Source of the DNA: a virus
Lineage: Duplodnaviria > Caudoviricetes
Direction: 5' to 3' (one strand)
IMG/VR virus record: IMGVR_UViG_3300035688_000006
Span: 1 to 54,471 of that record
DNA length: 54,471 bases
In this document: in pieces, positions 3,130 to 54,471 of the stretch
Numbering within the stretch: position 1 is the stretch's first letter
Layout: the number at the start of each line of letters is the position of its first letter
The notes under the pieces: model-generated
Database searches by the model: none
Seen by the model: the letters and a program-made list of their open reading frames with translations, nothing else
Told to the model about the DNA's origin: nothing
Program-made: the position numbers and the translations under genes

Positions 3130-3675
3130 TTAAAAATCCTTATAAGTTGTGATAAAAGCATTTTTTATTTTTTTTATAGGAAATGAATAAAAATTTGACG
3201 ATCCGTGTTTTATATTTTGTTGTAATTTCCCGAATTTTTCCAGCCCCCCCGCTTTTTCGACGATGATTTTATATTTTACGATATCGATCAACGCCCATTT
3301 AAAAAAATTCTCCTCCTTCTCATCCGCCCAACCATAAAAATAAATTTGTGCACCTAAAGAAAACCATTCTCCCGGATTCTCATATATAGTTCCGACTGCA
3401 TTAAAATATTCCTGCGTAAAATCTGCACCGAATGTCTTATAATAATAATAGGTTCTATATTTTTCCTGGATACTTATCCATTGACGACTCTTTAAATTTA
3501 TGAGACTGTCGATTCCAAACTCTTTGTCTAAGATATGGACCCTAACGCCCCGTTCTCTCAAATCTTTTAATTCGCAATCCGGGAATATCTTAGAATAAAT
3601 CTTTAAAGCAGCGGGTTTCATTTTTATCCTGAATTTTTCAGTGTCAGGTAGCCAAATTTTACGGTTATTTCCCAT
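3130..3675 (-). CDS. Methyltransferase-associated protein, possible PD-(D/E)XK nuclease
   Basis: GID...IQEK motif; AT-rich; overlaps the MTase end. Confidence 0.45.
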   Translation of the reverse strand: MGNNRKIWLPDTEKFRIKMKPAALKIYSKIFPDCELKDLRERGVRVHILDKEFGIDSLINLKSRQWISIQEKYRTYYYYKTFGADFTQEYFNAVGTIYENPGEWFSLGAQIYFYGWADEKEENFFKWALIDIVKYKIIVEKAGGLEKFGKLQQNIKHGSSNFYSFPIKKIKNAFITTYKDF

Positions 3676-4807
3676 AACAGGCTATTCTTTTTTGAGCTAA
3701 TTTTATATATTCAGGATCGATTTCAATTCCATGAAATCGCCTTTTTAATTGAATGACTGCGATTCCCGTAGTTCCCGATCCCATAAAAGGATCGGCAATT
3801 AATTCACCGGCTCTCGTTACTGCATTAACAAGCCACTTCATGACGGAGAGCGGCTTTTGGGTTGGATGCTGTTTTTGATCTACACCGTTAAAATTAGATT
3901 GGGGAACGGCGGCGACGTGGCAATCGAAATCATTCAATCCTTTTCCCCATTCCCCGCCTCCCAGATTAATCTCGCGATTGGAATCCATTTTCCTATAAAA
4001 AAAGATCGGTTCCCAGGTTTGTTTAAAACCGATTCTGCTTTGAGGGCTTTTATTGTTGGCGTAATGCCAAATGAGCAATTGCTGAAATTTATAGCCTTTT
4101 AAAGAATCATCGAACCAACGACGACCCTCCCAGAGATACCGTTGACTCCAGAAAATCAATATCGTCTCAGCTTTGCAAACTGACCATTCGGCCGCCCATT
4201 TTCTTGTAAAACTTTCAAGATCTTTAGGCTCCCATGATTCGTCTTTTATTCCATAGGGTGGATCGGTTATCAAACTAGCGCATTCGATGACGGATTGATT
4301 CGTAGTAATTTTATAATCTATTCCGGGACCGGCTTTAGCTAAAGCCGCTACTTCTTTCTCTTCATTTTTTAATTTCCGTATCTCTTTTAAAGCAGTTCTC
4401 AATATCGGCAAATTCTCCGTTTTTAAAGCTTCCTCTATGATCGATTTTATAATCTCCTGATATTCCGCCGCCCTCTGCGCATAGTGCGACGTTCTCTTGG
4501 ATATCCCGGGGGGGAGAATTGACGTGGTTCTATGCTGGGAACCACGTTCGGAATCAAATTTACTTTTGCTTTTATCAATCCCCCTCAGCAATTCCCCGAG
4601 CCTCACCCAAGCCCAAAGCAGACGCTCCGCCATTCGCTGCGCATCTTTTACGGCAGCGTCTCTGACGGCTCCCATTATATGAACTTTATCTATTGCCCGG
4701 AGTTGAGCTTTTTGCGCCTTTAATTTTTCGTCTCCTATTAAAATAAAATCTCTAATTTTGTCAATTGTAGCTGGCAAATCTTGCGGTCTCTTAATTATGC
4801 TTTTCAT
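3665..4807 (-). CDS. DNA N6-adenine/N4-cytosine methyltransferase (beta class) with N-terminal extension
   Basis: TDPPY catalytic motif precedes HPTQKP and DPFMGSGTT SAM-binding motif. Confidence 0.92.
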   Translation of the reverse strand: MKSIIKRPQDLPATIDKIRDFILIGDEKLKAQKAQLRAIDKVHIMGAVRDAAVKDAQRMAERLLWAWVRLGELLRGIDKSKSKFDSERGSQHRTTSILPPGISKRTSHYAQRAAEYQEIIKSIIEEALKTENLPILRTALKEIRKLKNEEKEVAALAKAGPGIDYKITTNQSVIECASLITDPPYGIKDESWEPKDLESFTRKWAAEWSVCKAETILIFWSQRYLWEGRRWFDDSLKGYKFQQLLIWHYANNKSPQSRIGFKQTWEPIFFYRKMDSNREINLGGGEWGKGLNDFDCHVAAVPQSNFNGVDQKQHPTQKPLSVMKWLVNAVTRAGELIADPFMGSGTTGIAVIQLKRRFHGIEIDPEYIKLAQKRIACYGK

Positions 4808-9963: not shown

Positions 9964-10181
9964 GCCCTTTTGCTGGAAACCTCTGCGTTTCGCTCGTCTC
10001 GCCGGCGTTTCATATCCTCGGACATGCCACTGTCGGCTAGACAGTTTAAATAGAACTCGCACATGAAGCAGCGCATTTGCTCCACCGGATTGTTGAAACA
10101 GTCCGGGATGACTGCGGCCGAGACGCTTCGCTTGGGCTCTTCAAACTTTATCGGGATTTGGTCCATTGATGTACTTCTCTT

Positions 10182-10415
10182 TCACTGGTCCAAGGCTTTG
10201 CGGACGGCCTCGATGCCGACGTCACGATCATTCATTAGGTCAAGAAAACACAAAACTATGTCCCTGATCTTTTCAAGCCGCTCGAGCTTCATGATGATTT
10301 CCTCAAGCGCGGCTATTTCCTCCGCCCACAAATTATCCTCCCTATACGTTAAGGACCTGGACGCATAGCCATTACAATCCTCGAGCCTTTTCTTCGCCCA
10401 ATCTATCGCCCTCAT
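10182..10415 (-). CDS. Hypothetical protein
   Basis: ORF overlapping upstream stop (ATGA). Confidence 0.55.
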   Translation of the reverse strand: MRAIDWAKKRLEDCNGYASRSLTYREDNLWAEEIAALEEIIMKLERLEKIRDIVLCFLDLMNDRDVGIEAVRKALDQ

Positions 10416-17963: not shown

Positions 17964-18182
17964 TCATTTGGACCTCCTTAAATTGACGGCCGCTCTCATG
18001 AAATTCAGGCCCCGATAAGGAGAGTGCTCGTCCACTACAAGAATCTCAAAAAAGCCAATCGTCCTGCGACGCGGATCCGACCGGTATTTGTGGAGAACTC
18101 TGCACTTCCACCAAACCACCTCACCCCCCGGCGCGAATCTGGCCAGGATGATACTGCCTATCTTGACTTTGCTCATGTTCAC
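17964..18182 (-). CDS. Hypothetical protein
   Basis: ORF overlapping neighbours by GTGA/ATGA. Confidence 0.5.
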   Translation of the reverse strand: MNMSKVKIGSIILARFAPGGEVVWWKCRVLHKYRSDPRRRTIGFFEILVVDEHSPYRGLNFMRAAVNLRRSK

Positions 18183-18475
18183 GCCTTCATCCTCAGCCGG
18201 TACAGCTTGCCGAACCGCCGATTCAACTCGCCCAGGATATCTTCGGCATCGGACTTGTTCGCCTTCCGAAGATCGTCATTCAGCATCTTGATCGTCGCCC
18301 GGCATTTCACGCTCCGCCGATTCCGCTTCGACTCGATCATAACGCTGGCCTCCTCGAGCTCACCCGACTCCATCTTCGAATTGAGCCCACTCAGTTTCGA
18401 CATCTTAGAACCTCCTCTTAAAATGGATTTTGGGGATATCTCTTTTGATCCCCCTTGAATGTTATTGATTATCAT
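18179..18475 (-). CDS. Hypothetical protein (first gene after the early promoter; start possibly 18403)
   Basis: ORF directly below promoter; GAGG RBS precedes MSKL. Confidence 0.5.
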   Translation of the reverse strand: MIINNIQGGSKEISPKSILRGGSKMSKLSGLNSKMESGELEEASVMIESKRNRRSVKCRATIKMLNDDLRKANKSDAEDILGELNRRFGKLYRLRMKA

Positions 18476-37445: not shown

Positions 37446-38209
37446 TAAACAACTCCTCCACCCAGGACCTCGTCTACGGTCTGAAATTCAAAACAGCGTA
37501 GTCCCGATCCTGGATTGAGATTGACGACTCTTGTCCCGGCCGCCTTGATCTTCGGCGCCCATTTCTCGAACGGACCCTTGTATTTGTCGAGCGTCTCCTG
37601 AGCCAGAGGCCTCGTATGCCCCTCGTGCCAGTGCGTCCCCGCGGGGCCGATCGTCATGTCGTAGCCGAGCAGGTAAATGGGATTTGCCCCTAACAGGAAC
37701 GCCAGATTCAACGCTCCAAAGCCGCTGTTGTCGCCGTGCCCGCAGCCCTCTTCCATTTTGAACGAAAAATTCTTCATCCCGAAGTCGTGATTCTTGAGCA
37801 CCCTGATTACAAAAATATCCTCCGGCAATTTGGCCGAATAGGTGAGGAGCCAGCACTTATACGCCGGCGTCTTTTCAAACTTCTCCTTTAACCCTGGGTA
37901 TATCTCGTCGTACCTTCCGTTCAATATCCAATGCAAAAACCGGGTGTCCATCGCGAACGCTACCGTCGGGTCGAAATAGTAAAACGCGAGATTGATACCG
38001 ATCGTTCGAAGCCCATCGAGCCTCTTCCAATCGAAGCCCTTCAAGCTCGGGCCTCCACCGACGATGAACGCCGGTCCGTCCGACCAGCATCCCGCCGGCA
38101 ACACTTCGGAGATTTGACGGTTTGAGATCGTCGGCGATTTGAATAGAATGGGAGCCCGGCCCAGAACCCAGGGGATCTGTTCTTTCATTTCCGCCAAGCT
38201 CTCCATCAT
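37445..38209 (-). CDS. DUF115/MptE/Maf-like glycosyltransferase-family protein
   Basis: IVGGGPSL, IGIN, NSGFGALNLA...IYLLGYDM, VVNL. Confidence 0.7.
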   Translation of the reverse strand: MMESLAEMKEQIPWVLGRAPILFKSPTISNRQISEVLPAGCWSDGPAFIVGGGPSLKGFDWKRLDGLRTIGINLAFYYFDPTVAFAMDTRFLHWILNGRYDEIYPGLKEKFEKTPAYKCWLLTYSAKLPEDIFVIRVLKNHDFGMKNFSFKMEEGCGHGDNSGFGALNLAFLLGANPIYLLGYDMTIGPAGTHWHEGHTRPLAQETLDKYKGPFEKWAPKIKAAGTRVVNLNPGSGLRCFEFQTVDEVLGGGVV

Positions 38210-43912: not shown

Positions 43913-45106
43913 TTATGCTCTCCTAGCGAAGCCTCCCATACTCAGTCCGGTAATCGCGCCAGCTTCAATTTCCGCCCAAACTCCCGCGTCCGTGATCTTT
44001 ATCATCATCCACCAAGCGCCGGCTTTGATCATACCGTCGCCCTTCTTTGTGTCATGCTCCGGCTGGAAACATTCGAGGATGGGAAACATATGGGCCGTGC
44101 CCTTGTGCATGATCTTGATACGGCTCGGCTGTTCGGCATACTTCATCATGAACCCGTACATCGTCTTCTGGATCTCGGCCGCGTCCGTCCAATCACCCTG
44201 GGTATCGACTGCGTTCGGCTCATAGACGATCCCGCCCACGATCTGCTGCGCTGCGTCCTTCTTCAGGATCTTGAAGATAGCCTCAGACTCGCCATCATCG
44301 ATCGCCTTCTTTTCTTCCTTGGCTGGCTCGAATGATATAAATTTGATTTTATTGTCCTTCAGCCATTTTCTCGCCTCGGCCTCGGTCCAGTCCTTGATAG
44401 GAAAGCGCAGCGCCTGCGGGATGGCAGCCTTCGGCGGGCCGTTTTTCGGATGACCCCAGATGATATCAATAGAGGCGGGAACGACAATCGCCCCTCCATA
44501 TATTTTTCCGCCCTTGGTTCTGCCGAACCTGTCGAATTTTCCGGGGTCGCTCAATCTCGCCGCGTGCTCGTTGGGATAGGGCTTTTCTATAACTTCCAAA
44601 TCGGCCTTGTCCAGGGCAAGCCCCCAGGTCCCGGCGTCGTATCTTGCCGGGGACTTTTTCCAGCCCTTGCAGATTCCGCCCACCGGCTCATCGTTGCCGC
44701 ACTTTAGGCACCGCGGGCTTCCCCAAGAAGTTGTCCACTTCGCCGGCTGGAATTTGTGTGACTTTTGCGCGTCGGCCTTCATGGAATTTTCAAATATTAG
44801 AGCCGTTTCATCGTCGTATGATTTTTGGTCCTCGGGACTGAGGCTTGTTTTGAAACCCGGCATTGGACCCGCCTTGTTGATGAACCTTTCGATACTGGAT
44901 TCAACACCGATAGGCATGAACCTCTTTTCCATCTCGGTCCGGAGCATCATGTATTTGGCCATAAACTCCGGCCACTCCGCAATTTCCGAGAACTTTTTGT
45001 TGCCGTGATATTGATTGAATAGTTGGATGAACTTGAACCGACACTCTTTCAATTCTTCTGGAGTCGCCTTCGTCAAAAGCTCTTCATTAATTTTTTCGAT
45101 TCTCAT
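43913..45106 (-). CDS. XkdF-like prohead protease with N-terminal extra domains
   Basis: QIVGGIVYEPNAVDTQGD, IMH, GAWW, GAITGLSMGG; also PYPNEHAARL. Confidence 0.8.
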   Translation of the reverse strand: MRIEKINEELLTKATPEELKECRFKFIQLFNQYHGNKKFSEIAEWPEFMAKYMMLRTEMEKRFMPIGVESSIERFINKAGPMPGFKTSLSPEDQKSYDDETALIFENSMKADAQKSHKFQPAKWTTSWGSPRCLKCGNDEPVGGICKGWKKSPARYDAGTWGLALDKADLEVIEKPYPNEHAARLSDPGKFDRFGRTKGGKIYGGAIVVPASIDIIWGHPKNGPPKAAIPQALRFPIKDWTEAEARKWLKDNKIKFISFEPAKEEKKAIDDGESEAIFKILKKDAAQQIVGGIVYEPNAVDTQGDWTDAAEIQKTMYGFMMKYAEQPSRIKIMHKGTAHMFPILECFQPEHDTKKGDGMIKAGAWWMMIKITDAGVWAEIEAGAITGLSMGGFARRA

Positions 45107-47352: not shown

Positions 47353-48981
47353 TCACTCTCCTTCTTCGATTTTATCTCTTGCCTCGGCCGCGGCCATCCG
47401 CGCTGCCTCCGCACTTGCTCGTCCCTTCTTCGCCTCGTCCAGAATCTTGTCTACCCTGGCTGCCAGTTCCTCGACCTGGGCGTCCCGGCCCTGGGTCATC
47501 CCTCCCACGCCGGCGTCGGACAAAGGCACATAGGCCGTGGAGATGTAGTACCTTTCCGCGTCTTCATCTTCGGGCGCCTCGACGTCCACCTCGTCCGCAA
47601 TCTGCTTCCTGTTCATGACTCCGACTCCGAAGAGTTGAACGCACCTGTTCGCGATTGCGTTGATATCCCGCAGGTCGACGTCGCCCCACCAAAATTCGAA
47701 CTTATCATTTTCGAGTCCCTTCTCGATAACCAAGGACGTGATGATCCTGGCCGTCACGAGCTTGAGCGGATTGACGCTGCTTTCGATGTAGACCCTCGTC
47801 GCTTCGGACGCTATATTCCCGCCCAGGCTGCCTTGCCTTGCAATGCCGATCCGATAGGGAGGCATCTTGAACGGGACCAGGACCTCGTCGATCAGCGATG
47901 CGTGATAGAGTTTGAAGTGGCCCTCTTTGATCTCGGTAACCAGGGGCTCCCACGTCACCTTGCCGCCTTCGGGAGGATTGACGACGATCGTCTTGTGGGC
48001 GTTCGCGCTGCCCTTGATATCGACGTCGATGAAGTCCGAAATGAGTTTGACGTTCTCCTCGTACCAGTCTCCCTCGACGATGACCATGGCCGCCGGCACC
48101 CCGTAGTTCTCGAAGAAGGCGAGGTTGTAATCCCTCGCCCCGATCATGGCCCTGACGCTTCCGACCGCCGGCAGGATGGGCGGCTGGCCATAGAACGAAC
48201 TCTGGGGATAATAGTTGACGAAGAAGATCAACTCGTTCGCTCTCTTATCTTCGGGCACGTTCTTCTCATCGCCCGTGTCCTGGTGGACGTCACCCTCGTA
48301 TCCGAACTTCTTGAACCACTTCTTGTCTATGCCCCGAATCTGGCAATATTTGTTGCGGTCTTTATGCACTCGTATCATGTGGGCGTGAACGTGGAATAGA
48401 GCGTCGATCTTGCCGTCCTGCCCGCGGGATACCTCGATGCCCATTTGGCCAACGGACTCGAAGTCTATGATCGCCCTCTTCCAGATCTCTTCGAACGTTT
48501 CGACGTCGTCATTCGGATTCCTGAAAAAATGAGACAGCCGCTTGAGCTCTGCGTCGTTTGGCCCAGGTGCTTTCGATGCCGCGGGAGCAGCCTCTACTTC
48601 GCCCTCCCCTGGAGTTGCCTCTGCTTCCTCCTCGGGCGCCGCTTCTACGTCCTCCTCCTCTTTCTCGGTGATGTCGTACCCCTGCCCCGTGACGTCCGTC
48701 GCGATCTGGCGGACACAAGCGTCGAAGTAGGAGCAGTTGTCCATGAGGAGCAGAATCGAAAGCATGTCGAACGGCGGGGGAGCCAGGTTGTTTTCGGTAA
48801 GATATAACTGCTCGATCGCGAGCTGCTTGCTCTTCTTGTTCGCGGCCTTCGTCTCTTTCTTGATCTCCGCCTTTCTTAACTGCTCCCAGGGGAATAGACC
48901 CCGGCTTGTGTAGACGTACCGGAATACTTTGCCCTTCCGCTTAACGGGAGGAGATGAAGACTCTTTGTTTTCGCTGCCCAT
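47353..48981 (-). CDS. Portal protein (PBSX/HK97-like)
   Basis: YNLAFFENYGVP, FKMPPYRIG, LGGN; follows TerL. Confidence 0.92.
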   Translation of the reverse strand: MGSENKESSSPPVKRKGKVFRYVYTSRGLFPWEQLRKAEIKKETKAANKKSKQLAIEQLYLTENNLAPPPFDMLSILLLMDNCSYFDACVRQIATDVTGQGYDITEKEEEDVEAAPEEEAEATPGEGEVEAAPAASKAPGPNDAELKRLSHFFRNPNDDVETFEEIWKRAIIDFESVGQMGIEVSRGQDGKIDALFHVHAHMIRVHKDRNKYCQIRGIDKKWFKKFGYEGDVHQDTGDEKNVPEDKRANELIFFVNYYPQSSFYGQPPILPAVGSVRAMIGARDYNLAFFENYGVPAAMVIVEGDWYEENVKLISDFIDVDIKGSANAHKTIVVNPPEGGKVTWEPLVTEIKEGHFKLYHASLIDEVLVPFKMPPYRIGIARQGSLGGNIASEATRVYIESSVNPLKLVTARIITSLVIEKGLENDKFEFWWGDVDLRDINAIANRCVQLFGVGVMNRKQIADEVDVEAPEDEDAERYYISTAYVPLSDAGVGGMTQGRDAQVEELAARVDKILDEAKKGRASAEAARMAAAEARDKIEEGE

Positions 48982-50578
48982 GATTCCCTCCAGCCTTAAC
49001 TTCGGACTCATTCACTACTGACCCTTCCGCCGGCCTTGGTTGGTCCGCCGGCACTTCTTTCTCCGGAACCTTCATGCCGCCGTGGATAACTTTTCCTCCG
49101 CGTCTCACCGGACCGAGTTTCCACATTACCCAGTAACGAGTTTCATCGAGGCTATGGTCTTTTTCCTTGACCGGCTTCCCTTTCCGCTCGAGATAATTAT
49201 TCACTTCCATGAGCCAATATTGACAACGTCGATTAACCCGGAATTTGGGCGGCCCCAGGACTGGGCGGAGGGCATTGCGGACGGCCCCGATGCCGATCTC
49301 AATATCATTATTCGCAGCATATAATTTTATTCCGGCCGCCGCCCATTCCTTTATCAGATCTGGACGGCTTGGATCGGCTACCCCCTCAGAAACATTCGGC
49401 CACCATGGCCGACTCCGGGCCTCCTCGATCAATCTTGTGTTCGTTGTGTTCGCGATATATATCTCATCGACCCTGATCCATCCGAGCGGCGTGAATTTCT
49501 GCCAGACGCCAAGCGAGAAAGGATTCGTCCCGCCCCAGTCGATCGAGATCACGGCCGGTAGATCGGGGCTGAAATCAGGCAGATCGAGCGGCGAATGGAT
49601 GGCTTCATCGAACTGTTCGCCATAAACGAGATCGGATCGCCCTACTTTATTGCAAAACCAATCGGTCTGAAGACTCATGAGCGACAGGTCCCTGAGTTTG
49701 CTTACGAAGTCGTGGATGGCATAATGGCCCTCGGCATTCTTCATCTGCAGGCCCGGACAGAAAGGTGTCAATTTGCATGTAGAACATGAGTAGTCCCGGC
49801 AACTTTCCGATGTCTCGAAAATACACCAATGATATATGGGGATCCCATGCTCCTTCGCGTTGGCCAGGGCCAAGTCCATCGCCCCGCCCACGCGGTGATT
49901 CGTGGATAGCCTTCCCAGGGAGCTTATGTGGCCATGTTTGCTCTGAGGCTGGGAAAGCGCCGCTATATAAACATCCTCCGGCATTTCGTCAACCTCATCC
50001 ATGATCAACTGGACCGGATGAGGACCGCGGGCCGAGCGAGTCGAGGCGGTGAGGACCGACACGCGGCTCTTATTTTTCCATTCCGTCAGCCTCCGCATGG
50101 GCTCGCCTGTGAGCCAGTCGTCCCGGAGCCCCGTCGAATCCCAGAAATCGCCCATTGCCTTATAGACCTTTTCGCTCTGCTCGAACGAACCGCCGAGGAT
50201 CGTCGTGTCATAGTCCGGGAGGAATCCACTTTTCACCCAGGTCACGAGCGCCGCTAGATAGCTCTTCCCGCCGGACCGGTTGGCCCAGACCACATAATCA
50301 TGGACCCGGCCGAGAAGGATATCCGTCACGAAATCCAGCGGGGCGCGGTGGTTGGGATTGCCGCAGTTAACGCGGCTGCTGATGCGCGGGCCGCGCAGCC
50401 ATTCTATAAGCGCCAAGACATCCGCCGCGGATTTTAGGCCATTACGCCTCAGGCCCTCGATCATCACCTTCTGAATCTTCCGGCTGTATGGGAAGCTCCA
50501 GAAGGCGTCGATGTCCGTCCCCGTTTCCATTGCGGAGGATGGCGACGAATTCCTTGACGCCTGTGATTCCATATTCAT
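48941..50578 (-). CDS. terL: Terminase large subunit
   Basis: ANRSGGKS Walker A, LIMDE Walker B, IDWG and DHSLDETRY nuclease motifs. Confidence 0.92.
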   Translation of the reverse strand: MNMESQASRNSSPSSAMETGTDIDAFWSFPYSRKIQKVMIEGLRRNGLKSAADVLALIEWLRGPRISSRVNCGNPNHRAPLDFVTDILLGRVHDYVVWANRSGGKSYLAALVTWVKSGFLPDYDTTILGGSFEQSEKVYKAMGDFWDSTGLRDDWLTGEPMRRLTEWKNKSRVSVLTASTRSARGPHPVQLIMDEVDEMPEDVYIAALSQPQSKHGHISSLGRLSTNHRVGGAMDLALANAKEHGIPIYHWCIFETSESCRDYSCSTCKLTPFCPGLQMKNAEGHYAIHDFVSKLRDLSLMSLQTDWFCNKVGRSDLVYGEQFDEAIHSPLDLPDFSPDLPAVISIDWGGTNPFSLGVWQKFTPLGWIRVDEIYIANTTNTRLIEEARSRPWWPNVSEGVADPSRPDLIKEWAAAGIKLYAANNDIEIGIGAVRNALRPVLGPPKFRVNRRCQYWLMEVNNYLERKGKPVKEKDHSLDETRYWVMWKLGPVRRGGKVIHGGMKVPEKEVPADQPRPAEGSVVNESEVKAGGNHGQRKQRVFISSR

Positions 50579-50933
50579 CCAAGAACTCCTTCAATTCCTG
50601 CATCGGGCCGATCTCCTCGATTATCGGTTGGCTGATTTTTCCCTCCGTCCTTTCGGCTATAAAGTTGACGGCCCAGGCCTCCCCGGCGATTGCGGCCCGC
50701 CATACGGATTTGATCAGCCACAACACCCTTTTCAGGTGCAGTGTCTTCTCCCCTATTTTGCCGGTTTCCATCTCCTCGCCTTCGGTAATCAGAAGGTCGC
50801 GGAGCGTCCTATTAAAAGTGAGAACTTTGTGACTGATCTGTCCGTTACGATTGATGCGAGGATCGCCCTTTTTGAAAGAGCCTGCTGTCGGAGGACGTTG
50901 AGCTGTATTACTGTCTATTTTCTCATTCATCAC
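50442..50933 (-). CDS. terS: Terminase small subunit
   Basis: FKKGDPRINRNG, AIAG..WA...ERTEGK; directly upstream of TerL. Confidence 0.75.
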   Translation of the reverse strand: MMNEKIDSNTAQRPPTAGSFKKGDPRINRNGQISHKVLTFNRTLRDLLITEGEEMETGKIGEKTLHLKRVLWLIKSVWRAAIAGEAWAVNFIAERTEGKISQPIIEEIGPMQELKEFLDEYGITGVKEFVAILRNGNGDGHRRLLELPIQPEDSEGDDRGPEA

Positions 50934-51014: not shown

Positions 51015-51043
51015 TTGACAGGAAATTCGCGGCGATTTATATT
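51015..51043 (+). promoter_or_regulatory. Sigma70 promoter for the DUF523 gene
   Basis: TTGACA-N17-TATATT; AAGGAG RBS at 51061. Confidence 0.75.
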
Positions 51044-51071
51044 TTAAGTGCAAATAAAGAAAGGAGTTAAG

Positions 51072-51533
51072 ATGATTATCTATTGCAGTTCGTGTCTTCT
51101 CGGGAAGCAATGCCTCTGGCATGGTAATATTCTTAAATTCTCGGCAGGGGGAATCGCGATGATTGCTGCGGCTGGCCATATCTTCATCGATTCCTGCCCC
51201 GAGATACTTGGCGGTTTGTCTTGTCCTCGCCCCCCTTCTTATCGCAGGCCTAATCGCCCGGGCCTGCTCATCGCGGCCGGCAAGGACGTCACGCCGGCGT
51301 TCGAACTCGGGGCAAGGCGGGCGCTGGCATTTCTGCGCGAAGCGCGGCCGCGTCCAGAGCTCGCCCTCCTGTTGGCCAAAAGTCCCTCCTGCGATCCCGG
51401 CTTCGGGATATTTGGCCGCGAAGCGGCAAAATTTATCCACGCGATCGCCTGCAATCGCAAGGATGGCCTCTGGCTCGAGCAGGCCTTGAAATTCTTGCAT
51501 ATCCTTCCACCTCAACGATATTTATTCCAATAG
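51072..51533 (+). CDS. DUF523 / TudS-like thiouracil desulfurase (Fe-S)
   Basis: SSCLLG, CPEILGGLSCPRPP, DVT..F..GA, KSPSC, GIF. Confidence 0.85.
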   Translation: MIIYCSSCLLGKQCLWHGNILKFSAGGIAMIAAAGHIFIDSCPEILGGLSCPRPPSYRRPNRPGLLIAAGKDVTPAFELGARRALAFLREARPRPELALLLAKSPSCDPGFGIFGREAAKFIHAIACNRKDGLWLEQALKFLHILPPQRYLFQ

Positions 51534-52708
51534 TTATAAAAATAATCAATATTATTATCACCTGAATGGCGAGGAAATTTCAAGGTCATTGCCAAGATGC
51601 GCATTTCTTCCCAAAGCATTGGATAACATGTTTGGAGCGCTTCCCACTGAGGACTGGATTTACTTTTTCCTTGAAATGGACACATCCAACAAGCTGTTCT
51701 CTTAAATCCCCGAACATAACCAGGCCAAAGCAATCCCTCTGCTTTTTTTAATAATTCCTCATACTCATCCTTTGATGTTTTGAAATAGGGGGAATAACTT
51801 AATCCCTTCGAGGATAAATGTACCGATGATCTTCGGGTACGACTTATAATTTGATCGGGTCGCCCTCCCCTTATTTTCAAAACCTTGACCGGGTCCGTAT
51901 TATCTATCGTCTTCTCTATAACATCGTTTATGAACATATGTTGGCAATCTCGATATATGGGGTCTGGCCATTTCCCTTTCTGAATATAATGCGCTATGAT
52001 ATTTTCTGTCGCATGTAGTATACGGAGATTGAATCCTTGTGCCTTCGCCAGACGCAAAATATACGCTATTAAATCTGGAAATTCGGCCCCCGTTTCAACA
52101 AATAAAGCCTCAAATGATTTCCCAATAATTTCACAAGCTTTTTTAGTCCAATATAAGGCGAGAAGAGAATCTTTGCCGCCACTGAATTCAACAAAAATAT
52201 ATTCAAAATTCGCCAACCAGATAAGCTTATCTTCGGGTATTTGCGGAAGATCCGGAAGTTTAATTAAATTATCCAATTGATTTCCACCTGGTCCATATTG
52301 TTCAATTATATTTTTTAAATTTACCGCCTTTCCTAGATCGATCTTATAATCCTCAAGATTAATTTCTTCAAAATGCGGATATACCAGTTCGGCCAATTTA
52401 TCCTCGAGATATTCCCCCGCCCGATCATTGTCCGAGAGCGCGTATTTTATCTTTTCCGCTTTCGTCTCAGCCCTGACGACTGATATTTCAACATCTTTAT
52501 GGCCAAGTTCCAGAAGTGCCCTTATCCTCATATTCCCGCCGAGCGTTATGAATCCGCCGTTCTCCTCAACGCAGATGAGCGGCTTATAAATTCCGAGGTC
52601 CTGGATCTGCCGCTTCAGACGCCCAAAGTCGGCGGTCTTGATATTTCTGGGATTTTCCGCCCATGGCTTGACGAACTCAATTGAGACTTTCCGGATGTCC
52701 ATTCCCAT
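51512..52708 (-). CDS. ParB-like N-domain fused to PAPS-reductase-family (PP-loop) domain
   Basis: PWAENPR, GGNMR; FSGGKDS, ETGAEFP, RTACWMCPF. Confidence 0.85.
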   Translation of the reverse strand: MGMDIRKVSIEFVKPWAENPRNIKTADFGRLKRQIQDLGIYKPLICVEENGGFITLGGNMRIRALLELGHKDVEISVVRAETKAEKIKYALSDNDRAGEYLEDKLAELVYPHFEEINLEDYKIDLGKAVNLKNIIEQYGPGGNQLDNLIKLPDLPQIPEDKLIWLANFEYIFVEFSGGKDSLLALYWTKKACEIIGKSFEALFVETGAEFPDLIAYILRLAKAQGFNLRILHATENIIAHYIQKGKWPDPIYRDCQHMFINDVIEKTIDNTDPVKVLKIRGGRPDQIISRTRRSSVHLSSKGLSYSPYFKTSKDEYEELLKKAEGLLWPGYVRGFKRTACWMCPFQGKSKSSPQWEALQTCYPMLWEEMRILAMTLKFPRHSGDNNIDYFYNYWNKYR

Positions 52709-53050
52709 CTTGGGCCTCTTCCCGGCTTCAATAATGGGACAGAATGAGGATGGCTGTCAAGAAAAAAGTTATTTTATTGAATCAGATTATATTTATTGGC
52801 CACCAATTTTGGCCTAGCCCATTAGCATTGAAACCGCCGCTATTCCTCGCTCATCCTCTTCTCATAGCAGTCCGGCCCGCAGAATATTCTGTGATTCGGA
52901 TGGATGTATCTGATACCTGGATGGATAATCCCGCAAATCGGGCACTGCACGGCTATCCCCGATTCCAACGCCTCTCTGACGGACATTCTGTTGATTTTTT
53001 TCATTAAATCGTTATACCGTTTGTCATGTGTCATTTTCCTTGAATTTTCG

Positions 53051-53248
53051 CTAGCTTTTATTCGCACATCCGGGGCATAGATGCGACCAATCTCCGACAT
53101 CATCCTTGGATATCTTCCAGCCGATCATTTTTGCGTCGGCTATAAAATCCTTGAAATAAGTTCGGTCAAAAAATTCGGATATTCCGCAGTCGTCACATTC
53201 CATATCAAAGCCGGAAATTCCGCCTTCCCTGGCCCAATCAGTTATCAT
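53051..53248 (-). CDS. Small zinc-ribbon protein
   Basis: CDDC...GW...LCPGC. Confidence 0.6.
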   Translation of the reverse strand: MITDWAREGGISGFDMECDDCGISEFFDRTYFKDFIADAKMIGWKISKDDVGDWSHLCPGCANKS

Positions 53249-53307
53249 TTTCCTCTATGGTCTAAGCTTATGCATGTGTTCATGCTCCGTAGCTATCGGT
53301 TCGCTAT

Positions 53308-53610
53308 TTATTTCTCGGGTATCTTCCTGTACTTTTTGAGCTCGAGTTCCAACTCGGCGACTTTGCTCCACGCCCAAATCGCCTTGAGGATGAAAGCCTT
53401 GGTCACAATCGTATACTCGCCGGCCGGATCCGCGTCGGCAGCCCAGGCCAGGACGCCCGCTGTGATCGACCCTATGACCTTCTCCTCCCCGACCGGCACG
53501 TAAATATTGGGGGGAGGGATCTTACCGCAAGCCGTGAAGTAGCTTAGCGATAATACGATTGAGAGCGTCAAAATCATTGCTCTCCATGGCTTTGAGCGCA
53601 TCTTGTTCAT
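53308..53610 (-). CDS. Lipoprotein, probable outer-membrane spanin
   Basis: Signal peptide with lipobox FTAC followed by PPP; overlaps the upstream gene in another frame. Confidence 0.55.
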   Translation of the reverse strand: MNKMRSKPWRAMILTLSIVLSLSYFTACGKIPPPNIYVPVGEEKVIGSITAGVLAWAADADPAGEYTIVTKAFILKAIWAWSKVAELELELKKYRKIPEK

Positions 53611-53734
53611 CTTTGTTCCTTTCCTTTTGAATTTCGTCGATTTTCTCATTGATCTTCTCCAACTCTGTCTTTAACAGATGAGGCAATAATTGGAGAACCA
53701 GCTCTAGAATTCCTCCGATCACTTCTCCCGGCAT
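53522..53734 (-). CDS. Possible inner-membrane spanin
   Basis: Hydrophobic N-terminus plus coiled coil; Rz/Rz1-like overlap. Confidence 0.45.
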   Translation of the reverse strand: MPGEVIGGILELVLQLLPHLLKTELEKINEKIDEIQKERNKDEQDALKAMESNDFDALNRIIAKLLHGLR

Positions 53735-53922
53735 GTTAGTCCTTGAATAATCCGGATTTCTCCGCTTCTGTCAAAACCGATAAGACGTGTTCGTATACGC
53801 GATTATAAGCGGCAGTCTCCAACTTCGGAAGTTCCGGCGGTCTAATGCTCGACCAAAAAATAAGCATGATTTTTTCGGTCAACATACCCGCTTTTGTTTT
53901 TGGTGTTTCCATGTTATTCCTC

Positions 53923-54327
53923 CTAAAATCTAAATTTAACAAAATCTCCGCGCCTCCTCGGGGAATCGTCGGGAAAACTGATGAAGGTGAGTTTGTAGAG
54001 ACCGTTCTCTGATTCTAATCCGACCGGGTACGCTCGGTAAACTGTTAGCCACGTTTTTTTTGCCGATACAATTCCTCCGGCCGCCCGTTTCAAAATGAGT
54101 TTCTTGGATTCGGCATACACCGATGCCGGCTTCATCCTGGCCTTTATGAGCTTACGGAGCACGACTCTCAAGCCCGAGTTGCCCTCAAAAGTGCATTGGA
54201 ATTTGAGAACCGATGTGTAAAGCCCCGCGTTCTTTTGAACTGCCATACAGTCTTTTGCCAAGCCGAGCTCCTTCTTGTCCCACACTACCTTGCATGGACC
54301 CAGGTCTGATACGTAATTCGGGCTCAC
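53923..54327 (-). CDS. Shortened paralog of the major tail tube protein
   Basis: Collinear motif matches to 30954..31475 (see findings). Confidence 0.7.
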   Translation of the reverse strand: MSPNYVSDLGPCKVVWDKKELGLAKDCMAVQKNAGLYTSVLKFQCTFEGNSGLRVVLRKLIKARMKPASVYAESKKLILKRAAGGIVSAKKTWLTVYRAYPVGLESENGLYKLTFISFPDDSPRRRGDFVKFRF

Positions 54328-54471
54328 CTCACCGCCCCTTCATCCCCGCTCCCCGGTTTCCCGATGGCCACGTCCATGACCCATTCTTGCACCTTTGCTG
54401 CAAGTTTGTGTGACATGATGAATTCCTAGTTTTTATTTAATAAAACCCGCCTTACAAATTCTGCCATGACG

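Follow-up and report, generated by a model that had tools for sequence, protein, structure and literature searches.

Why should a tailed virus keep a ParB-fused member of the PAPS (phosphoadenosine phosphosulfate) reductase family tail to tail with a protein that has the fold of a thiouracil desulfidase? The question is raised by IMG/VR virus record IMGVR_UViG_3300035688_000006 (Duplodnaviria; Caudoviricetes), a complete virus record by CheckV (completeness 100), whose whole length of 54,471 bp is called the window here. Toward its right end a minus-strand gene (51512..52708, 398 aa) encodes the ParB–PAPS-reductase fusion, below ParB-PAPS, and a plus-strand gene (51072..51533, 153 aa) encodes the DUF523/TudS-fold protein; the two converge and share 22 bp at their 3′ ends (51512..51533, stop codons counted in both genes). 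An earlier note, made from the sequence alone, had described this arrangement, and the open reading frames (ORFs) and coordinates are as it described them; the motifs that it quoted (SGGKDS, CWMCPF, SCLLG, CPE and KSPSC) are all found in the translations. The note proposed that one protein might write a sulfur modification that the other erases. Our preferred answer, which we regard as about evenly poised between right and wrong, is that the pair forms a self-contained two-component cassette putting sulfur into phage DNA, with the DUF523 protein acting as sulfur donor or relay and not as eraser.

Single-sequence scans of viral contigs gave no relatives of either protein, and alignment-based scans were needed. 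Two alignments were built, A1 from nine DUF523 sequences and A2 from 33 ParB-PAPS sequences; viral loci were fetched with the ParB-PAPS alignment and then scanned for DUF523 with a hidden Markov model of A1. Each locus scan took at most 80 loci, seeded by two short peptide patterns, and many contigs were short; the co-occurrence fractions below describe the fetched loci and are no census. An abutting DUF523 ORF was found at 30 of the 35 viral loci with a near-full-length ParB-PAPS gene, the gaps between stop-to-stop ORFs ranging from -154 to +159 nt; at most of the 35 loci ParB-PAPS is 24–37% identical to the window protein. The neighbor was found at none of 27 viral loci with partial ParB or PAPS matches and at none of 74 archaeal chromosomal PAPS-only homologues. 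Viral, metagenome, genome and isolate loci were pooled before the ParB-PAPS proteins were clustered, and a DUF523 neighbor is present in 27 of the 32 clusters formed at 70% identity (22 of 27 at 50%); 19 of the 70% clusters are convergent, seven are co-directional with small gaps, and one is divergent. Three contigs came back when IMG/VR was scanned with the DUF523 alignment. Two are those that hold the closest ParB-PAPS homologues (57% and 53% identity), in the same convergent overlap; in the third the DUF523 gene lies 38 bp from the contig end. The overlap itself recurs: the C-terminus of the window DUF523 protein (...PPQRYLFQ) is encoded opposite the ParB-PAPS C-terminus, and relatives at loci L002, L068, L071 and L083 have an equivalent overlapping tail (...PPQRNLFQ).

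The pairing extends to cellular genomes and to an isolate. Among contigs from one genome per species, five of six ParB-PAPS genes have the DUF523 neighbor, the pairs coming from Hyphomicrobiales, Verrucomicrobiales, a delta-proteobacterial remnant and a Methanosarcinales metagenome-assembled genome (MAG); the sixth copy stops 376 nt short of a contig edge. Among 50,697 deposited phage genomes, matches covering most of the protein occur only in Methanoculleus virus L4768/Blf4, an archaeal virus that has been isolated and has two records there; its gp05 carries PAPS_reduct and ParB_N, gp06 is a PF04463 protein (82 bits) and gp07 is TerL. The deposited annotation of gp05 is 'DNA modification methylase', and the available portion of the paper describing Blf4 mentions neither PAPS, ParB nor sulfur. 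A tblastn search of the window DUF523 protein against the 50,697 records gave no matches at E ≤ 1e-3; because Blf4 gp06 is a DUF523 protein by Pfam, this blank marks a limit of sensitivity, not an absence. That the two genes work together, as the earlier note supposed, is strongly supported by this co-occurrence.

No third conserved gene was found within ±4 kb in 30 representative loci, where ParB-PAPS is present in 30 and DUF523 in 25; the other recurrent families are short and are read as antisense shadow ORFs. Of 24 representative loci, 18 have a TerL or portal gene no more than 3 kb away, and the terminases that adjoin the cassette span several PHROGs (phrog_2, 15, 38 and 979). Many tailed viruses of bacteria and archaea thus carry the cassette beside their packaging genes, and at four loci (L007, L027, L028 and L037) a ParB-methylase fusion adjoins it as well. 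Pairwise distances of the two partner proteins are correlated (r 0.51, with none of 5000 permutations as high), which shows co-inheritance and nothing more, as is expected of genes in the same genome.

Several single loci depart from the common form. The delta-proteobacterial MAG locus L092:4962-5847 holds cassette fragments only (PAPS profile positions 202-390, DUF523 positions 44-79) and is a decaying prophage copy in which both genes are degrading together. At L067:4074-4646 and L084:3-305 the DUF523 protein retains the tail …ILQILPPQRNLFQ, elsewhere encoded opposite the ParB-PAPS 3′ end, and next to it are just ORFs with no family match and an AAA_25 protein; these look like recent loss or replacement of the partner. 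A gene of the Vut_1 transporter family (119 bits), which we take to be YhhQ-like and to transport a queuosine precursor, lies just downstream of a ParB-PAPS gene without DUF523 at L012:1934-2683, a possible link to another base-modification pathway. At L009:7986-9596 one in-frame stop (…MSQFD*EWGEQ…) separates the ParB and PAPS parts; the gene may be split, the stop recoded, or the sequence in error. The same locus was considered as a triple in-frame fusion and rejected, the DUF523 protein, though in the same frame, starting at its own Met after another stop codon.

What does the large protein do? Its N-terminal part (about aa 1-135; 52304..52708, minus strand) is a ParB/Srx domain. The Pfam ParB_N score (21.4 bits) falls under the cut-off of 26.3, and the assignment is backed by a match of the A2 profile to PDB ParB/Noc at 1e-10, by Foldseek hits to Noc/ParB, and by PHROG ParB families (1e-15) and ParB-methyltransferase families. 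The ParB part is 60–69% identical to that of proteins in which ParB is fused to N6/N4 or C5 DNA methylases; by sequence it appears to be an exchangeable DNA-targeting module for DNA-modifying enzymes. The earlier note's framing of the locus as one of DNA modification is borne out by this shared module and by the nearby terminase or portal genes.

The C-terminal part (about aa 165-398; 51515..52216, minus strand) is a PAPS-reductase-family PP-loop domain (PF01507 PAPS_reduct, 41.9 bits against a cut-off of 22.5). An AlphaFold2 (AF2) model of the whole protein, with a predicted local distance difference test score (pLDDT) of 89.3, shows an N-terminal domain like that of ParB/Noc and a C-terminal one like that of CysH/APS reductase (APS, adenosine phosphosulfate), and Foldseek matches the latter to CysH (6vpu, 1sur), 2o8v and APS reductase (2goy) with E 3e-7 to 6e-6. 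The SGGKDS motif (52166-52183, minus strand) and three cysteines, C255, C340 and C343, are invariant among the 33 sequences of A2, the last two forming the CWMC motif (51680-51691, minus strand). APS reductases have a characteristic cysteine pattern, with a set spacing of the triad and a CxxC at the end of the Pfam domain, and the window protein fits it. In CysH a catalytic C-terminal cysteine, in an ECGLH-type motif, lies after the CxxC; A2 has no invariant or near-invariant cysteine after C343 (C361 of the window protein is not conserved), so the CysH-type catalytic cysteine is missing. The best PADLOC match is SspD (38.9 bits, E 1.9e-10, aligned over 5-195 of 277, with no curated cut-off in the library), and MTase_II and BrxP (17.2 bits) are also listed; the best NCBIfam models are archaeal 'hypothetical protein' entries (PRK13795/PRK08557). 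DndC is an Fe-S (iron–sulfur)-dependent ATP pyrophosphatase with an SGGKDS PP-loop (PMC6435447; papers are cited throughout for what their available portions state), and the three cysteines common to DndC and APS reductase bind a [4Fe-4S] cluster (PMC12193691).

The nearest cellular relatives of the PAPS domain (L094-L167; for example L148:4011-6254 and L103:4203-6260) are chromosomal ORFs of about 600–750 aa, measured stop to stop, mostly archaeal, from Methanosarcinales, Thermoprotei, Thermoplasmata and other taxa. Four of the five archaeal chromosomal relatives that were scanned combine PAPS_reduct with a C-terminal Fer4 ferredoxin domain, and BrxP has a ferredoxin-like Cys-rich region (PMC12839542). 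By analogy, DNA-type relatives of PAPS reductase repeatedly keep an extra Fe-S module, and in the phages a separate TudS-fold protein may take its place.

The small protein is assigned to the DUF523/TudS fold by Pfam (PF04463 2-thiour_desulf, 56.5 bits against a cut-off of 34.7, profile positions 1-105 of 141), by phrog_27395, by a profile alignment to TudS and by structure. In phage-linked DUF523 proteins generally the Pfam match ends at profile position 105-109 of 141. The AF2 model of the window protein (pLDDT 91.9) has TudS structures 6z96/6z93 as its sole real Foldseek match (E 4e-8, template modeling score (TM) 0.70, root-mean-square deviation 3.0-3.4 Å, 28% identity), the next best hit having E 0.04. 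NCBIfam has no match for this protein. The ESM Atlas name 'CD3072 family TudS-related putative desulfidase' / PF27735 scored 0.87-0.89, under the 0.9 threshold, and was not used.

In TudS, C10, C43 and C104 are the [4Fe-4S] ligands, Glu45, Ser101 and Ser103 are catalytic, Tyr18 and Pro102 sandwich the uracil, and Arg17 binds phosphate (PMC10611767). In the profile alignment with 6Z92, window residues C8, C42 and C107 fall on the three ligands, E44, S104 and S106 on Glu45, Ser101 and Ser103, and W16 and P105 on Tyr18 and Pro102. C8, C42 and C107 are accordingly the predicted three-Cys [4Fe-4S] site. Residues S6, C8, H17, C42, E44, P52, R53, S104 and P105 are invariant in 30 phage-linked DUF523 proteins, C107 is present in 29 of the 30, and position 16 is aromatic. 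The loop before the site differs: the window protein has C-L-W-H-G where TudS has R-Y-D/N-G, with Arg replaced by Leu and Asp by His, and thus lacks the TudS loop.

The histidine, His17, sets the phage proteins apart. A profile search of 1.84 billion representatives gave 7234 DUF523 matches at E ≤ 1e-3 and 33 at E ≤ 1e-30; His17 occurs in 28 of the best 33 and in 36 of the best 149 library representatives, and Asp/Asn in 102 of the 149. In a cellular sample drawn from 121 genomes of one bacterial class, the position is Asp/Asn in all nine DUF523 proteins matched at E ≤ 1e-12, eight of which have the Arg, and His is also absent from a tenth, weak match (E 2e-4). No ParB-PAPS gene adjoins any of these cellular genes. 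A tree groups the phage-linked proteins in a single clade (support 96/95) that excludes TudS/RudS and the fusions of DUF523 with purine nucleoside phosphorylase (PNP). His17 is the signature of this clade, and of the two residues considered, His17 and Cys14, the only specific one. Cys14, which lies near ligand C8 in 29 of 30 partner DUF523 sequences, was rejected as a signature; it is present in 123 of the top 149 DUF523 proteins, including Asp-type ones and PNP fusions. Cellular DUF523 domains are also fused to other proteins (P0130-P0134, P0215-P0260), among them purine/uridine nucleoside phosphorylase, PHP phosphoesterase, PRA isomerase, an EamA transporter, DUF5662 and DUF2007, with DHFR in one Atlas cluster; the nucleotide-related fusions fit a salvage role for Asp-type DUF523.

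How might two such proteins act together? We suggest that the ParB domain would load the enzyme onto phage DNA about when and where that DNA is packaged. The DndC/SspD-like PP-loop domain, which probably holds a [4Fe-4S] cluster on C255, C340 and C343, would then adenylate an oxygen of the DNA, either of a backbone phosphate or of a base carbonyl. The DUF523 protein would carry its own [4Fe-4S] cluster on three cysteines with one iron open, pick up on that iron a sulfur atom supplied by sulfide or by a thiopyrimidine nucleotide, giving [4Fe-5S], and, in contact with its partner, hand the sulfur to the PP-loop site, with ATP pushing the chemistry of TudS toward thiolation. Phage DNA would come to carry the sulfur as a phosphorothioate or a thiolated base and may in this way be shielded from host nucleases. 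That no cassette has a cysteine desulfurase gene, and that viruses of methanogens carry the cassette, would fit a supply of sulfur from sulfide or from a cluster. The other suggestion of the earlier note, that sulfur is supplied from thio-nucleotides, agrees with such a scheme.

In its boldest form, which we think unlikely, the cassette would write a thiolated base into double-stranded phage DNA (for example the 4-thio or 2-thio form of thymidine or cytidine). A flipped-out pyrimidine would sit in the DUF523 pocket, and the carbonyl, once the ParB-tethered PP-loop domain had adenylated it, would receive its sulfur from [4Fe-5S]. If so, the pair would be a 'split' TtuA-type thiolase in which a desulfidase fold runs in the synthetic direction. 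We know of no natural thiobase described in DNA.

Judged by analogy, the cassette appears most like Dnd/Ssp phosphorothioation or TtuA-type thiolation and is a member of neither. With DndC, SspD and BrxP it shares the PAPS_reduct family and the SGGKDS PP-loop, its C...CxxC cysteines being compatible with the DndC triad (C146, C280 and C283), and with Dnd the DNA-modification context and a ParB-superfamily partner, DndB being ParB-like (PMC11662687, PMC12839542). It differs from Dnd and Ssp in having no DndA/SspA cysteine desulfurase, DndD/SspC ATPase or DndE/SspB within ±4 kb at 30 loci, and in being borne by viruses, whereas theirs lie in host defense islands. Its ParB is fused in cis, unlike in Dnd, Ssp and BREX type 4, and a TudS-fold partner is not named among the components of those systems in the available portions of their descriptions. 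In the window itself, no sulfur-metabolism family except phrog_424 was matched when 56 + 9 ORFs were compared with PHROGs.

The TtuA/NcsA/TtuI enzymes resemble the cassette in the mechanism proposed, namely PP-loop adenylation of a carbonyl and a three-Cys [4Fe-4S] cluster whose open iron carries sulfur. The PP-loop tRNA thiolases TtuA and NcsA have such a cluster and a [4Fe-5S] intermediate as in TudS (PMC8584467), and [4Fe-4S]-dependent PP-loop tRNA thiolation is documented further (PMC10067955, PMC9825150). Similarity of ParB-PAPS to them is limited to the PP-loop region (6scy, E 6e-4 over residues 145-229; Foldseek E 4e-5, TM 0.34). The cassette enzyme differs in belonging to the PAPS_reduct subfamily, in having the sulfur cluster on a separate polypeptide of another fold, and in its presumed substrate, DNA and not tRNA; TtuA/NcsA is treated here as a mechanistic analogue, not as the family of ParB-PAPS. 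The small protein shares with TudS/RudS (PF04463; PDB 6Z92-6Z96) the fold, the three cluster cysteines, Glu45, Ser101, Pro102 and the stacking aromatic. The phage clade is separate, with His for Asp/Asn, Leu for Arg17 in the window subfamily and a variable Ser103 position, and its members have a PP-loop enzyme as partner; among cellular members of the family, fusions to DUF1722, PNP, DHFR and other domains occur. ParB-DNA methyltransferase fusions have the same ParB module, the same terminase-side position and sometimes a place side by side with the cassette, in which, however, the catalytic part is PP-loop/Fe-S and not S-adenosylmethionine-dependent and a second gene is kept.

A number of findings weigh against a sulfur-writing cassette. 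The mapping of C255, C340 and C343 onto the ligands of DndC and APS reductase is by pattern, spacing and fold, with which it is compatible, and not by aligned residues; against PDB, phmmer with the PAPS domain gave chance matches only; the PADLOC DndC model had no match at E ≤ 0.01 and the SspD and BrxP matches are weak; and all NCBIfam matches of ParB-PAPS fall far under their cut-offs. In the small protein the phosphate-binding R17 of TudS is Leu in the window subfamily, though retained in most of the clade, and the Ser103 position (S106 in the window) is Ala or Met in six of 25 paired representatives. The retained TudS Glu, Ser and base pocket would be equally expected of a desulfidase used for erasure or salvage. 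The convergent genes have separate promoter candidates, perhaps with different timing, and co-transcription may suit a partner better. No DUF523/ParB-PAPS fusion was found among longer proteins, where the search turned up only five DUF523 + PNP_UDP_1 proteins; this is weak evidence. Each gene is also found alone, so neither strictly needs its partner: five of the 32 ParB-PAPS clusters (L008, L012, L017, L021 and L038) have no DUF523 and no evident replacement, and seven metagenome loci of the window DUF523 subfamily (including L073-L075, L077 and L078) have no ParB-PAPS. The solo DUF523 genes are still in phage or prophage context, with scaffold, integrase or helix-turn-helix genes near, and since they nest inside paired ones in the tree they look like secondary losses.

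The erasing role proposed in the earlier note has to be weighed against this donor role. It would have ParB-PAPS thiolate DNA or nucleotides and the DUF523 protein, as a true desulfidase, remove the thio group from free thionucleotides arising in turnover, from mis-modified host nucleic acid or from s4U in host tRNA, confining the mark to phage DNA or making it reversible. The retained TudS fold speaks for it, together with the three cluster cysteines, Glu44, Ser104, Pro105 and the stacking aromatic; TudS and RudS are desulfidases by experiment, a phage RudS having been tested too (PMC10611767, PMC11417400). Separate promoter-like sites on convergent genes would permit different timing, and members of the window subfamily are also found by themselves in prophage-like contigs, as might be expected of a stand-alone salvage enzyme. 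Yet 27 of 32 clusters conserve the tight pair, and a writer kept with its eraser would run a futile cycle if neither time nor substrate separated them; the seven co-directional clusters with small gaps suggest co-expression. The clade-specific change of Asp/Asn to His beside the stacking residue argues that function has shifted from that of TudS, and the clade is no copy of a host salvage gene, since three host genomes, when checked, had no other PF04463 gene. Nothing computed supports writing and erasing specifically, and we rank it below a writer with an Fe-S sulfur helper because the phage DUF523 proteins are a separate clade with an altered active site, because PAPS-reductase-like relatives have a further Fe-S module within the same chain, and because of the futile cycle; we hold it to be improbable.

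Coupling might also serve other chemistry, a doubtful alternative in our judgment. The PP-loop domain could adenylate a DNA base or nucleotide so that some other nucleophile attacks it (amination or amidation, as with other PP-loop enzymes), the DUF523 cluster acting on the intermediate as Lewis acid or hydrolase, or the DUF523 protein could serve electron transfer as ferredoxin domains do in related proteins. PP-loop enzymes do perform many substitutions besides thiolation, and one 639-aa protein (P0224) fuses an H-type DUF523 domain to an SGGKDS PP-loop domain with CxxC pairs, nearest to the WbuX N-acetyl sugar amidotransferase (74 bits, under the cut-off of 203). It may be a Rosetta-stone hint that His-type DUF523 works with PP-loop enzymes generally, but it is one sequence on one 3311-bp metagenome contig. 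A redox role would be in keeping with the Fer4 electron-transfer domains of the archaeal relatives and with Cys14 as a fourth cysteine near ligand C8; the spread of Cys14 to Asp-type proteins means that it is no marker of a four-Cys cluster. Against other chemistry, the characterized relatives encountered (CysH, CysD, APS reductase, DndC, SspD and BrxP) all handle sulfur, and the sole known chemistry of DUF523 is sulfur abstraction. Very improbable, finally, is that there is no coupling at all, with ParB-PAPS a sulfate-assimilation auxiliary metabolic gene, DUF523 a salvage moron and their adjacency a matter of phage ancestry. Phage PAPS reductases have been published as host-metabolism genes (PMC11318856, PMC12323421), either gene can occur alone, and the window DUF523 gene has the promoter-like site of its own and the different GC (guanine plus cytosine) content that a moron might have. 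The adjacency, however, persists at 24–37% ParB-PAPS identity, in three orientations, beside terminases of several PHROGs and in viruses of both bacteria and archaea, and is missing from all the PAPS-only homologues and partial viral matches. The lack of a conserved cysteine after C343, where that of CysH lies, also speaks against a role in sulfate assimilation, and the ParB fusion shared with DNA methylases makes a small-molecule role unlikely.

We found no paper linking ParB-PAPS reductases with DUF523 in a literature search that did not extend to subscription journals, and phage PAPS reductases are filed as auxiliary genes of host sulfate metabolism (PMC11318856, PMC12323421). For the ParB-fused clade that label is probably wrong because of the DNA-targeting module shared with DNA methylases and the dedicated TudS-fold partner; the pair points to an undescribed chemical marking of viral DNA, probably with sulfur. 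Were sulfur indeed put into DNA, this would be by far the smallest sulfur-modification system known, with two genes against the four or five of Dnd and Ssp and without a cysteine desulfurase of its own, carried by viruses of bacteria and of methanogenic archaea. It would represent a new anti-restriction chemistry and a compact tool for site- or region-directed thiolation of DNA. It would also test whether the [4Fe-5S] state of TudS can donate sulfur, a role that a review of tRNA thiolation flags as unproven (PMC8584467). An isolated virus–host pair with the cassette exists in Methanoculleus virus L4768/Blf4, which makes the question directly testable.

The signals around the two genes were read from the window. 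A sigma-70-like promoter candidate of the DUF523 gene (51015..51043, plus strand; TTGACA-17-TATATT) has 11 of 12 consensus matches, and a Shine-Dalgarno-like AAAGGAG (51060..51066, plus strand), read directly, lies 5 nt before the ATG. The near-consensus promoter and ribosome-binding site that the earlier note gave this gene are therefore both there, the promoter as a site found by consensus scan only. The DUF523 frame is open from 51048, and the ATG at 51072 is the likeliest start. A second candidate, likewise from the consensus scan only, precedes ParB-PAPS (52731..52760, minus strand; TTGACA-18-CATTAT, 10 of 12). The region holds eight promoter-like sites against 4.8 ± 2.3 in shuffles.

GC content is 0.569 in the DUF523 gene, 0.409 in the ParB-PAPS gene and 0.511 in the window, the step falling exactly at the overlap; in relatives the paired genes have similar GC. 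The step at the 22-bp overlap indicates a mosaic joint and suggests that the ParB-PAPS gene, or the AT-richer right end (~52000 to 54471), was exchanged by recombination with the pairing retained.

The earlier note had placed the pair next to terS. The terminase large subunit gene TerL (48941..50578, minus strand) has PHROG terminase matches (best E 2.2e-10), so a terminase neighborhood stands; the ORF in the terS position (50442..50933, minus strand, 163 aa) matched no Pfam or PHROG family and is so named by position only. Both are context and not part of the cassette. The window genes are nearly all on the minus strand; the earlier note took the DUF523 gene to be one of just two credible plus-strand genes, and three further plus-strand ORFs that were scanned (804-1538, 10063-10365 and 18024-18455) had no PHROG match. 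PHROG matches to portal, TerL, tape measure, replication initiator, DNA methylase and other proteins indicate a siphovirus-like layout. The sequencing runs listed for this virus are five of sediment-metagenome DNA and none of RNA.

The window also holds a conventional DNA methyltransferase gene (3668-4807, minus strand; phrog_67, E 3e-45), and the C-terminus of the product of 43916-45106 (minus strand) matches PHROGs of head-maturation proteases as well as of DNA methyltransferases. Modification of DNA in this phage is therefore not left to the cassette alone. Within the structural module, 37448-38209 (minus strand) matches phrog_4603 'alpha-2,3-sialyltransferase' (E 1.8e-27), and a glycosyltransferase-like gene amid head-tail adaptor genes is unusual.

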